This document shows, piece after piece, positions 2,158 to 4,476 of a DNA stretch of 4,660 nt. Position 1 is the stretch's first letter. Every line of letters begins with the position of its first letter. The translations under genes were made by a program, and so were the position numbers. Origin of the DNA: a virus (taxonomy: Duplodnaviria; Heunggongvirae; Uroviricota; Caudoviricetes); the IMG/VR virus record IMGVR_UViG_2695420699_000005; one strand, given 5' to 3'. The notes beneath the pieces were generated by a model. It was not told where the DNA came from. It did not search any database and saw nothing but the letters and a program-made list of their open reading frames with translations.

Positions 2158-3207
2158 ATGCTTAATACTGTAAAAATATCCAGTTGTGAGTTAATCAACG
2201 CCGACTGCCTGGAATTTATGCGGTCGTTACCCGAAAATTCTGTTGACCTGATAGTCACGGACCCGCCGTACTTCAAAGTGAAACCCGAGGGCTGGGATAA
2301 CCAGTGGGCGGGTGATGAAGATTACCTGAAGTGGCTGGACCAGTGTCTTGCGCAGTTCTGGCGGGTGCTGAAACCTGCCGGAAGTCTTTACCTGTTCTGT
2401 GGCCATCGTCTGGCATCTGACACCGAAATCATGATGCGTGAGCGGTTTAACGTGCTGAACCATATCATCTGGGCAAAGCCGTCCGGACGCTGGAACGGGT
2501 GCAACAAGGAAAGCCTGCGGGCGTATTTCCCCGCCACAGAGCGCATTCTGTTCGCAGAGCATTATCAGGGGCCGTATCGTCCGAAAGATGCCGGGTATGA
2601 GGCGAAGGGTAGGGCACTGAAACAGCATGTGATGGCCCCGCTGATTGCTTACTTTCGTGATGCGCGCGCTGTCCTGGGGATAACGGCAAAACAGATTGCA
2701 GATGCCACAGGAAAGAAAAACATGGTGTCGCACTGGTTCAGTGCCGGTCAGTGGCAGCTGCCGAACGAAAGCGATTATCTGAAATTACAGGCACTGTTTG
2801 CCCGGGTGGCAGAAGAGAAGCATCAGCGGGGTGAACTGGAAAAGCCCCACCACCAGCTGGTGGATACGTATGCCTCTCTGAACCGACAGTATGCGGAGCT
2901 GCAGAGTGAATATAAGCATCTGCGGCGGTATTTTGGTGTGACGGCGCAGGTGCCGTACACGGATGTGTGGACACATAAACCGGTGCAGTTCTATCCCGGG
3001 AAACATCCGTGCGAAAAACCGGCAGAAATGCTGCAGCAGATAATCAGCGCAAGCAGTCGTCCGGGTGACCTGGTTGCAGATTTTTTTATGGGCTCAGGTT
3101 CAACGGTAAAAGCGGCACTGGCGCTCGGGCGTCGTGCAATTGGCGTTGAGCTGGAGACTGAACGTTTTGAGCAGACAGTCAGGGAAGTTCAGGATTTAAT
3201 CGTTTGA
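2158..3207 (+). CDS. DNA methyltransferase, beta-class (motif IV DPPY N-terminal, motif I FxGSGS C-terminal), probably N6-adenine; orphan, with no adjacent restriction endonuclease
   Basis: 349 aa ORF with VDLIVTDPPYF near the N-terminus (2245-2274) and DFFMGSGSTVKAALALGRRAIGVE near the C-terminus. That motif order (IV then I) is the beta permutation of amino-MTases, and DPPY favours N6-adenine over N4-cytosine (often SPPY). The antisense ORFs inside it are low-complexity and treated as artefacts. Confidence 0.85.
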   Translation: MLNTVKISSCELINADCLEFMRSLPENSVDLIVTDPPYFKVKPEGWDNQWAGDEDYLKWLDQCLAQFWRVLKPAGSLYLFCGHRLASDTEIMMRERFNVLNHIIWAKPSGRWNGCNKESLRAYFPATERILFAEHYQGPYRPKDAGYEAKGRALKQHVMAPLIAYFRDARAVLGITAKQIADATGKKNMVSHWFSAGQWQLPNESDYLKLQALFARVAEEKHQRGELEKPHHQLVDTYASLNRQYAELQSEYKHLRRYFGVTAQVPYTDVWTHKPVQFYPGKHPCEKPAEMLQQIISASSRPGDLVADFFMGSGSTVKAALALGRRAIGVELETERFEQTVREVQDLIV

Positions 3208-3218
3208 AACGGATGAGA

Positions 3219-3247
3219 TTGCAGAATTAATTTCGCACCATTATTAT
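3219..3247 (+). promoter_or_regulatory. Candidate sigma70 promoter for the tRNA cluster
   Basis: TTGCAG (3219-3224), 17-nt spacer, TATTAT (3242-3247), which would start transcription a few nt before the tRNA 5' end at 3257. The -35 is weak; pattern match only. Confidence 0.3.
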
Positions 3248-3256
3248 TCTGGTCCC

Positions 3257-3332
3257 GGCCCTTTAGCTCAGTGGTGAGAGCGAGCGACTCATAATCGCCA
3301 GGTCGCTGGTTCAAATCCAGCAAGGGCCACCA
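3257..3332 (+). tRNA. ileZ: tRNA-Ile2-like (anticodon CAU, ileX/ileZ type; formally could read as tRNA-Met)
   Basis: 76 nt with acceptor stem GGCCCTT/AAGGGCC, D-arm AGCTCAGTGGTGAGAGC, anticodon loop CTCATAA, T-loop TTCAAAT, discriminator A and encoded CCA. Near-identical by recollection to E. coli ileX (tRNA-Ile LAU). A phage tRNA-Ile of this type next to a tRNA-Arg is the arrangement known from Stx-type lambdoid phages. Confidence 0.9.
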
Positions 3333-3339
3333 TCACATA

Positions 3340-3419
3340 CCGCCATTAGCTTATCAGGAAGAGCAGACGACACCATAACAGGGTTGTTGGTGCGGGGGCG
3401 GGTCCCCGATGGCGGTCCA
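3340..3419 (+). tRNA. tRNA-like element, non-canonical (possible pseudo-tRNA or argN-position remnant)
   Basis: Perfect 7-bp acceptor-type pairing CCGCCAT (3340-3346) with ATGGCGG (3409-3415), then T and CCA (3416-3419). Plausible D-arm GCTT-ATCAGGAA-GAGC and a 5-bp GC stem CGGGG/CCCCG directly abutting the 3' acceptor strand. However the T-loop is a non-consensus 6 nt (GCGGGT) and no canonical anticodon stem-loop could be drawn. Confidence 0.35.
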
Positions 3420-3432
3420 TTATCGGTATTCT

Positions 3433-3509
3433 GCGTTGTTAGCTCAGCCGGACAGAGCAATTGCCTTCTAAGCAATCGGTCACTGGTTCGACTCCACTAC
3501 AACGCGCCA
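3433..3509 (+). tRNA. argO: tRNA-Arg (anticodon UCU, reads AGA)
   Basis: 77 nt with acceptor GCGTTGT/ACAACGC, D-arm AGCTCAGCCGGACAGAGC, anticodon stem-loop ATTGC-CTTCTAA-GCAAT (anticodon TCT), T-loop TTCGACT, discriminator G and encoded CCA. One C-C mismatch in the T-stem. Resembles E. coli argU. Confidence 0.85.
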
Positions 3510-3522
3510 CACTTATTTTCCA

Positions 3523-3546
3523 GGCTCGCTTCGGCGGGCCTTTTTT
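3523..3546 (+). terminator. Rho-independent terminator downstream of the tRNA cluster
   Basis: 7-bp stem GGCTCGC/GCGGGCC (one G-U pair) with a UUCG tetraloop (3530-3533), followed by TTTTTT (3541-3546). Confidence 0.6.
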
Positions 3547-3678
3547 GTATCTGCGCCACGCCCGGTGCATATCAACCACAGAGCCTTTCGGGGGTGAGCT
3601 TACGGAGTGGTCAGTGTGACTTTCTCTGTGGGCAGATCGCTCCCGGGCGTTGGCTCACCCACCCAAAGGAACGTCACG

Positions 3679-4111
3679 ATGTTTGGTATTTTTGGTAAAA
3701 AAAGCCCGCAGAGCGGCAACGGAAATTAAAAAGTTTGAAAAACGCGATCTGGCACAGGTGGTGATTAACGCCGCATACCTGGTGGCCTGTGCAGATGGTG
3801 AATGTGAGGCTTCCTAGAAAGCGAAGATCGAACAGGTACTGCGTAATCAGCCTGCGCTGTCCGCGTTTACGTCAGAAATTAATGCGATTAGCGCAACCAT
3901 TATCGGTCAGCTGGATACGAACTTTAAAATTGGTCGTCGTGCGGCGTTACGTGAGATCGAGGATGTGAAACACGATACGCGTGAAGCGGAAGATGTGCTG
4001 GATGTGGCGGTGGCCATTGCGGAGGCAGACGGCGAAATTGAGCCGGAAGAGCGCAAGGTGCTGGAAGAGATTGCCGGTGTTCTGGGTCTTCGTCTGGAGA
4101 ATCACCTGTGA
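3679..4111 (+). pseudogene. TerB-like (tellurite-resistance TerB family) gene disrupted by a frameshift in an A7 run and an in-frame amber codon
   Basis: ATG at 3679 with an AGGA Shine-Dalgarno 8 nt upstream reads MFGIFGKK then stops after 16 codons. Shifting +1 at the A7 run (3697-3703) continues as ARRAATEIKKFEKRDLAQVVINAAYLVACADGECEAS, hits TAG at 3815-3817, then continues KAKIEQVLRNQPALSAF...VAIAEADGEIEPEERKVLEEIAGVLGLRLENHL to TGA at 4109-4111. The composition is strongly protein-like and the ADGE...EE...L pattern resembles TerB-type domains, which I recall being annotated at this position in enterobacterial prophages. Confidence 0.5.
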
Positions 4112-4275
4112 CGGTAAAACTGCGCCTGACTGTGGCTGCACTCCTGCTGTTTCTGGTGGTGATGGTGGATTTCACCAGCAGAATCATGTCGGTGCTGGCG
4201 GATGGGGTGCTGGTCTGCGGCATTGTGGTATTGCTGTGGCCGGTGATAAAAAGAAACAGCCTGCATAATGCTTGA
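4108..4275 (+). CDS. Small hydrophobic membrane protein (about 55 aa, two predicted TM helices), translationally coupled to the TerB-like frame
   Basis: GTG start at 4108 overlaps the TerB-frame stop (GTGA). Translation VTVKLRLTVAALLLFLVVMVDFTSRIMSVLADGVLVCGIVVLLWPVIKRNSLHNA has two hydrophobic segments and ends at TGA 4273-4275. Track ORF 3981..4268 is in another frame and is W/R-rich and non-protein-like. Not in the ORF track under this frame; start codon uncertain (internal ATG alternatives exist). Confidence 0.4.
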   Translation: MTVKLRLTVAALLLFLVVMVDFTSRIMSVLADGVLVCGIVVLLWPVIKRNSLHNA

Positions 4276-4476
4276 TTTTTTTGTTTGCTGTTTATTAAAA
4301 ACACTTCTGCATGGTGAATCCCCCTGTGCGGAGGGGCAATCAGCGAGTAGGTATATGGGATAATCGCGGATTCAGGTGCTGGTACTGAATTCACCGGGAG
4401 GCACCCGGCACCATGCTTTGCCACAAAAGTGTTATTTCTGTTTTTCTCAAACTATCATCGTTATCCCTTTATTTCC

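Follow-up and report, generated by a model that had tools for sequence, protein, structure and literature searches.

A probable argN-lineage tRNA pseudogene in the tRNA cluster of an E. coli lambdoid prophage, and its conserved chromosomal relative

An 80-nt stretch in the tRNA cluster of an E. coli lambdoid prophage raises the question of what a sequence can be that has both ends of a tRNA but no canonical anticodon arm: a tRNA, a decayed tRNA, an RNA with another task, or a remnant of integration. The whole stretch of DNA that we analysed, 4,660 nt in length and referred to here as the window, is the late-regulatory region of the prophage. The element occupies the slot between an ileZ-type and an argO-type tRNA gene; the slot region (3320-3440) is 100% identical to NZ_CP148334.1, and PGAP gives no annotation between the two tRNAs in the identical E. 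coli locus. The features of the window are as follows.

to 657: DUF968 protein, C-terminal part
670-1029: RusA
1038-1568: DUF1133 protein
between the DUF1133 protein and the DNA methyltransferase: small ORF
2158-3207: DNA methyltransferase
3257-3332, + strand: ileZ-type tRNA (CAT), first in the cluster (ARAGORN; Rfam tRNA 72.5 bits; PGAP tRNA-Ile in the identical E. coli locus)
3333-3339, + strand: 7-nt spacer between ileZ and the element (sequence; 3 of 7 columns variable among prophage haplotypes)
3340-3419, + strand: probable argN-derived tRNA-like pseudogene, 80 nt (argN homology in the same slot; uncalled by ARAGORN and Rfam; cloverleaf-like MFE)
3340-3346, + strand: acceptor stem, 5' strand, CCGCCAT (perfect pairing with 3409-3415; as in argN)
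3349-3364, + strand: D arm, GCTT / ATCAGGAA / GAGC (fold; 5' part common to argN)
3366-3392, + strand: replaced core, GACGACACCATAACAGGGTTGTTGGTG, forming a long hairpin where argN has its anticodon arm and variable loop (fold; common to phiP27)
3393-3408, + strand: T-arm remnant, CGGGG / GCGGGT / CCCCG (sequence; G run length-variable in related prophages)
3409-3415, + strand: acceptor stem, 3' strand, ATGGCGG (sequence and fold)
3416-3419, + strand: discriminator T (3416) and encoded CCA (3417-3419) (sequence; as in argN)
3433-3509, + strand: argO-type tRNA-Arg (TCT), last in the cluster (ARAGORN; Rfam tRNA 60 bits with non-pair marks)
3522-3547, + strand: intrinsic terminator-like hairpin and T run that closes the tRNA cluster (hairpin 3522-3541; 8-bp stem with 6 GC pairs, loop of 4, TTTTTTGT tail)
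4108-4275: DUF3927 ORF, after the TerB pseudogene

We read the DUF1133 protein as a Q-like antiterminator because its position adjoins RusA. The argO allele of the window differs at 3492 and 3497, with a changed T loop and, in the T stem, a C.C mismatch (3497), and it scores 60 bits as against 70-72 bits in other argO copies; 10 of 55 haplotypes carry this allele, a sign that the whole tRNA cluster may be degrading in the lineage of this prophage. A TerB-family (tellurite-resistance-like) pseudogene with internal stops (3679-4111) holds the position that stx has in Stx phages, and a strong match to the sRNA STnc100 family (101.5 bits) lies at 4280-4452. STnc100 also follows the tRNA cluster in a Stx2 phage locus (L002) and a Lelliottia prophage locus (L143). 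A candidate promoter for the cluster, TTGCAG-N17-TATTAT at 3219-3247, was picked out by eye; it has only 8 of 12 matches and is unreported by the scan, and we dropped it.

The first-pass annotation had described a perfect 7-bp acceptor stem, a discriminator, a CCA and a credible D arm, and all of these can be read directly in the sequence, the first three being present as in a canonical tRNA. The D stem (GCTT 3349-3352 / GAGC 3361-3364, from sequence and fold) has 4 bp with one U.G pair, and the 8-nt D loop contains GG with equivalents of G18, G19 and A20, giving as RNA the GCUU/GAGC stem and AUCAGGAA loop of a canonical D arm. The T stem pairs CGGGG (3393-3397) with CCCCG (3404-3408) around the 6-nt loop GCGGGT, which has no equivalents of T54, Psi55 and A58 and departs from the 7-nt consensus T loop (U54 U55 C56, A58), as had been pointed out earlier. 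The same account held that no canonical anticodon arm can be drawn and that neither a CCT nor a TCG anticodon context is present; both statements hold, in that no 5-bp stem with a 7-nt anticodon loop (U33, purine 37) can be drawn in 3366-3392 and neither triplet stands in a loop position. The minimum free energy fold of the element is nevertheless a cloverleaf (-31.3 kcal/mol, z = -1.9), although 8 of 200 shuffles fold equally well. The arm at its centre, a bulged hairpin of 9 bp, ends in an AGG triloop. Position 3374 is C in the window, a minor allele found in 10 of 55 haplotypes; the major allele, G, yields a perfect 7-bp stem (CGAUAAC/GUUGUUG) with the AGG triloop, and the window allele disrupts a G.U pair of that hairpin.

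Automated tRNA detection left the element out. ARAGORN called solely tRNA(CAT) at 3257-3332 and tRNA-Arg(TCT) at 3433-3509 in the window, and at 70% thresholds, with or without introns, it made no + strand call on the element. The earlier description of the element as a non-canonical tRNA-like sequence was right. Reverse-strand calls ('Leu aag' and 'mt-Asn gtt') came from relaxed (70%/50%), intron and metazoan-mitochondrial modes of very low stringency. We rejected them as the mirror-image artefacts that a tRNA-like palindrome gives, as with the reverse-strand Plastid-ycf2 matches on ileZ. The Rfam tRNA model (RF00005), the covariance search that had been proposed, was likewise silent on the element: there was no match to it at E<=10, whether the whole window or the 100-nt slot alone was searched. 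Since an 11.6-bit match to another family already had E = 6.8 in the 100-nt slot, the tRNA score of the element must lie well below the gathering score of 29 bits.

The first-pass annotation had taken a sub-threshold covariance score and an alignment showing no relation to tRNA-Arg as the findings that would speak against it. The first of these was borne out, the score being below threshold; the alignment, on the other hand, relates the element to a tRNA-Arg gene. Stx2 phages have argN, a 77-nt tRNA-Arg(TCG), in the slot between ileZ and argO, which bears out the earlier expectation of a second tRNA-Arg at this position (the gene names follow records AP012536 and NC_010237, where the cluster lies upstream of stx). 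The cluster of ileZ, slot and argO is 88-92% similar to that of Stx2 phages and phiP27. Alignment of the element with argN showed the relation at both ends: the acceptor stem (CCGCCAU/AUGGCGG), U73, CCA, 5' D arm and T stem are common to the two, as are the slot and the spacers, and divergence is confined to the core and the T loop. Judged from this alignment, the resemblance of the element to a tRNA is due to argN homology and not to chance. The argN gene itself scores 55.9 bits with the Rfam tRNA model and has a 5-bp anticodon stem, the loop CUUCGAA (UCG), a variable loop of 5 nt and a T loop reading UUCGAGN, whereas the element has the 27-nt hairpin core, the GCGGGU T loop, no canonical UCG loop and no Rfam score.

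The hairpin-core form is not peculiar to the window. In phiP27 (a Stx2e phage, NC_003356, in which only ileZ and argO are annotated) the slot has the same arms and a core with a single difference, G at 3374, and phiP27 and the window are 90% identical over 121 nt. Unlike the element, the phiP27 slot has a consensus 7-nt T loop (TTCGAGT), a T-stem mismatch and a GCUC D stem in place of GCUU; like the element and locus L030, it has no Rfam tRNA score. Among the 2,391 E. coli records matched by a 121-nt query (3320-3440), about 1,700 carry a copy at least 90% identical; copies in complete E. coli genomes number roughly 4,900 in all. In E. coli prophages the slot usually holds the hairpin-core form rather than canonical argN. 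Other occupants are also found. Stx2c phages (L125 1515-1580) have a 66-nt argN-type remnant from which the anticodon arm is deleted, and canonical argN is about 10 times more polymorphic than ileZ. The variation of the slot and its damaged occupants fit a dispensable, decaying gene. The middle slot of ileZ-argN-argO is a hot spot of tRNA-gene remodelling and decay: besides the canonical UCG form it can hold a 'Lys-like' UUU form in which position 33 is C, a remnant with an internal deletion, or the hairpin-core form. The Lys-like form was observed in the PPompW_EH2246 phage (L124 1515-1590), where an argN body carries the loop CCUUUAA with C33, not U33; a Buttiauxella gene with an argN body (L133 7041-7117) has the loop CAUUUAA with A33, not U33. 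ARAGORN calls both 'tRNA-Lys UUU', and neither has an Rfam tRNA match; these genes could be decayed, or could be anticodon-loop variants like those reported to evade anticodon nucleases.

The position of the element also bears on the suggestion that it is an integration-site remnant, a partial tRNA copy that stayed behind at an attachment site. tRNA genes and pseudo-tRNAs are common flanks of integrated elements, and one relative, in Salmonella arizonae, has an integrase fragment and a tRNA-Asn close by. The pseudogenes pauD, pawZ and ptwF, found at prophage attachment sites of E. coli K-12, are partial 3' duplicates of host tRNAs that were made by integration at island borders. They resemble the element in being tRNA-derived, prophage-associated and non-decoding. 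The element, unlike them, is a full-length paralogue within a phage tRNA operon: it keeps both acceptor strands, sits exactly in the argN slot of an intact cluster with the conserved 7-nt and 13-nt spacers, and is internal to the lambdoid late region, between the DNA methylase and the TerB/lysis genes, where we found no integrase, direct repeat or island boundary nearby. The alignment with argN already speaks against the suggestion; we abandoned it and regard an attachment-site origin as extremely improbable.

We compared the element among prophages using 115 IMG/VR loci (60 haplotypes), fetched by a pattern that fixed 21 core and D-arm bases and left the acceptor and T arm free; these copies come mostly from E. 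coli and Shigella genomes and are related, not independent, samples. Divergent copies were missed, since some positions are fixed in the patterns used for searching. Most haplotypes keep the acceptor stem and CCA intact. Other prophage copies have acceptor-stem changes at 3343 (C>G), 3411, 3412 and 3415 (G>A), all of them uncompensated, U8>G occurs in 9 of 55 haplotypes, and the T stem has suffered deletions of one and two bases. The T loop in related copies reads GGCGGGU or has longer G runs, the G run of the T arm (window 3394-3398) being a hypervariable homopolymer of 5 to 16 G in related prophages, and in 5 loci the element is truncated or fused to argO. Long G tracts were seen to accompany the U8>G change; the G-run site occurs in L156, L158, L175, L221 and others.

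Variable columns were more frequent in the element (17 of 59 free columns) than in ileZ and argO taken together (18 of 153; 7/76 and 11/77, respectively), with an odds ratio of 3.0 and p = 0.006. The element did not differ from the spacers (9/20) and was less variable than the non-tRNA flanks (0.8 per column). A count of cloverleaf pairs over 16 distinct alleles gave no compensatory changes and 9 broken pair-cells, and covariation was the same as in shuffles. The window-type prophage copies, variable like the spacers, do not behave as an RNA held invariant against diverging flanks; they show instead the marks of a tRNA pseudogene, namely relaxed constraint in comparison with the neighbouring tRNAs, uncompensated damage to stems, and indels.

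The argN homology and the uncompensated damage across prophage copies favor the decayed tRNA among the options put forward at the outset. We consider it likely that the element is a tRNA pseudogene of the argN lineage, co-transcribed with its neighbors and possibly still excised, but non-decoding. It retains the acceptor stem, discriminator, CCA, D arm and T stem of argN, while the 27-nt long-hairpin sequence stands in for the anticodon arm and variable loop and the T loop is cut to the 6-nt GCGGGU. With no 7-nt anticodon loop and such a T loop, the element can therefore be no ribosomal adaptor. A single precursor may run from ileZ through the element to argO and end at the terminator (3522-3547). 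RNase P and 3' exonucleases may still excise the element from it because the acceptor/T-stem helix and CCA are intact in the window copy, and excision would also release ileZ at its 3' end and argO at its 5' end. The released RNA would be expected to be unstable and functionless because it is without the T-loop/D-loop elbow.

We counted several findings against a pseudogene, namely the full length, the cloverleaf MFE, the mostly intact acceptor stem and CCA, the perfect hairpin of the major allele, the high prevalence, the lower variability than in the non-tRNA flanks and the existence of an invariant chromosomal relative. The degraded state of the surrounding prophage, with the TerB pseudogene downstream and the T-stem mismatch of argO, was counted in favor. 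A tRNA pseudogene label fits 3340-3419 better than a blank, and a pseudogene in the slot would explain why phiP27-type and many non-Stx lambdoid prophages have two, not three, tRNA genes. The core is not a product of random argN decay; it comes from a lineage of argN-like genes with aberrant anticodon arms, the closest of which is a chromosomal copy in Escherichia. A decayed argN copy is in itself ordinary, and it is the unannotated, conserved chromosomal relative that deserves attention.

This relative is an unannotated 81-nt tRNA-like sequence at 345334-345414 of NC_000913.3 (MG1655; L236 1835-1915; L151 4001-4081). It sits between yahL and yahN, upstream of the latter, and is present as a single copy in 5,169 of 5,426 complete E. 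coli genomes. It shares with the element the acceptor stem, U73, CCA, D arm and a related core (GACGAC...CAGGR TTGTTG); the chromosomal core is GACGACAACCAGGATTGTTGTATGGTA, and the 27-nt core of the window looks, by eye, like this Escherichia-type core with the 5' stem strand tandemly duplicated. Unlike the element, the 81-nt sequence is chromosomal, has a consensus T loop (UUCGAGG) and a central arm with a 7-bp stem and 6-nt loop, and is invariant across five species: none of the 58 pattern-free positions varies in E. coli, E. albertii, E. whittamii, E. ruysiae and Escherichia sp. E1V33, as against 31 of 115 columns in the upstream flank and 89 of 100 in the downstream flank. It also has a strong promoter of its own, a conserved sigma-70 sequence (TTGACA-16-CATAAT, 11/12 matches) about 80 nt upstream. 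A promoter for the 'completely uncharacterized' yahM has been confirmed experimentally (bioRxiv 10.1101/2025.05.13.653802).

Two ORFs, the recently added xtpA (b4845) and yahM (b0327), overlap the 81-nt sequence in MG1655. In E. albertii and E. whittamii codon 4 of the xtpA frame is a stop; E. ruysiae has the same stop and has lost the start as well; the yahM frame is unalignable between Escherichia species. Since the ORFs are unconserved and the 81-nt sequence is invariant, the conserved object is the RNA-like sequence and not the ORFs. Rfam has no family for the sequence and gave no tRNA match to it, and ARAGORN calls it 'tRNA-Ser(gga)'. From these comparisons the chromosomal relative is evidently under strong purifying selection, and a tRNA-shaped RNA without an anticodon loop can evidently be useful. 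E. coli K-12 345334-345414 is the more valuable by-product of this work; should it prove to be a genuine RNA gene, the best-studied bacterium would gain a new non-coding RNA. A partial literature search, which is no proof of novelty, found nothing that linked ileZ/argN/argO, yahM or xtpA to a tRNA-like sequence or pseudo-tRNA, or that described the 81-nt sequence. Two ideas about the locus were rejected. It does not appear to be a relic of a whole tRNA cluster, local alignment of its leader and trailer with ileZ and argO being no better than shuffles, and yahL is not a conserved protein partner: yahL is confined to E. coli, synteny across the genus extends to yahN only, and the contexts in other genera are unrelated.

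We scanned one genome per species with an acceptor-end pattern and recovered argN together with tRNA-like sequences that match it in the acceptor, D and T arms and have aberrant central arms. The aberrant forms occur in nine genera (Escherichia, Shigella, Salmonella, Citrobacter, Pseudocitrobacter, Buttiauxella, Lelliottia, Brenneria and Proteus), those of Salmonella being from subspecies arizonae and diarizonae, and they are found in prophage late regions, IS-rich islands and chromosomal sites. Nearly all of them give cloverleaf folds, with central stems that differ in sequence and length; this comparison across genera is of single-sequence folds, and the MAFFT alignment of the divergent cores is not structural. 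The 74-nt forms of Salmonella and Citrobacter have 6-nt loops and score 38-39 bits with the Rfam tRNA model, above threshold, whereas the other aberrant forms have no score. ARAGORN assigned the relatives the anticodons 'Ser gga', '??? gg', 'Lys ttt' and 'Glu ttc'. A purine-rich, Shine-Dalgarno-like loop motif, C-N-G-G-R (CAGGA, CGGGA, CUGGA or CAGGG), was seen in the central hairpin of the otherwise divergent L130, L149, L128, L138, L131 and the window (3379-3383), the carriers being Escherichia, Citrobacter, two Salmonella subspecies, Brenneria and the window.

A tRNA-derived regulatory RNA, another of the options put forward at the outset, has the unconstrained look of the prophage copies against it and the invariant chromosomal relative in its favor. 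The chromosomal relative and the wider set of sequences bring in a related reading, in which the element is a functional non-decoding tRNA-like RNA, excised by tRNA-processing enzymes and acting through its tRNA body and exposed hairpin loop. It could then be a decoy for a tRNA-binding enzyme or nuclease, a regulator, or a processing module for ileZ and argO, within a wider argN-derived family that includes the yahN-adjacent copy. The 81-nt relative, with its shared arms and related core, its wide occurrence and invariance, its 11/12 promoter and the lack of conservation of the overlapping ORFs, argues for such an RNA, as do the cloverleaf folds across nine genera, the recurrence of the C-N-G-G-R loop motif and the intact acceptor stem and CCA of the window copy. 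The prophage lineage shows the opposite of the chromosomal copy, with uncompensated breaks in the acceptor stem, U8>G, a T loop that is destroyed or expanded, truncations and spacer-like variability, and C3374 in the window breaks the G.U pair of the major allele. We therefore think a functional RNA in the prophage unlikely, while allowing it a real chance.

A precedent for a tRNA-shaped gene outside translation is tRNA-Other of Bacillus cereus, a pseudo-tRNA with a regulatory role and a demonstrated deletion phenotype (PMC3399842). The element resembles it in shape and in standing outside translation; the difference is that the prophage copies look unconstrained, whereas tRNA-Other has that phenotype. 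We can also only doubtfully propose that the element belongs, perhaps still as an active member, to an undescribed Enterobacterales family of argN-derived non-decoding tRNA-like RNAs, in which the acceptor/D/T body and CCA are kept and a C-N-G-G-R hairpin replaces the anticodon arm. The best-preserved member of such a family would be the promoter-equipped 81-nt gene of the Escherichia core genome that lies under the xtpA/yahM annotations. If this were true, these RNAs would be products of the tRNA-processing machinery with a task other than decoding, such as that of a decoy or regulator.

The scores and anticodon calls of the relatives also bear on whether the element might decode after all, as a tRNA with an unusual, enlarged anticodon loop such as a suppressor or frameshift tRNA. 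Its acceptor stem, CCA and D arm are intact, the relatives receive odd anticodons from ARAGORN, and the 74-nt Salmonella and Citrobacter forms reach 38-39 bits. The window type, on the other hand, has no 7-nt loop, U33 context or T-loop consensus and was uncalled at any threshold tried, it carries a triloop-capped 9-bp hairpin as its central arm, and the copies in the population are damaged. We consider a decoding tRNA very improbable, and the argN-lineage pseudogene remains our preferred reading of the element.

One further locus from the scan may preserve more than the middle gene. In Salmonella enterica subsp. diarizonae (L128), a sub-threshold tRNA match of 22.9 bits at 2684-2756 lies directly upstream of the 74-nt argN-like gene. 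The match is probably a decayed ileZ, and the locus is therefore likely a relic of the same phage tRNA cluster.
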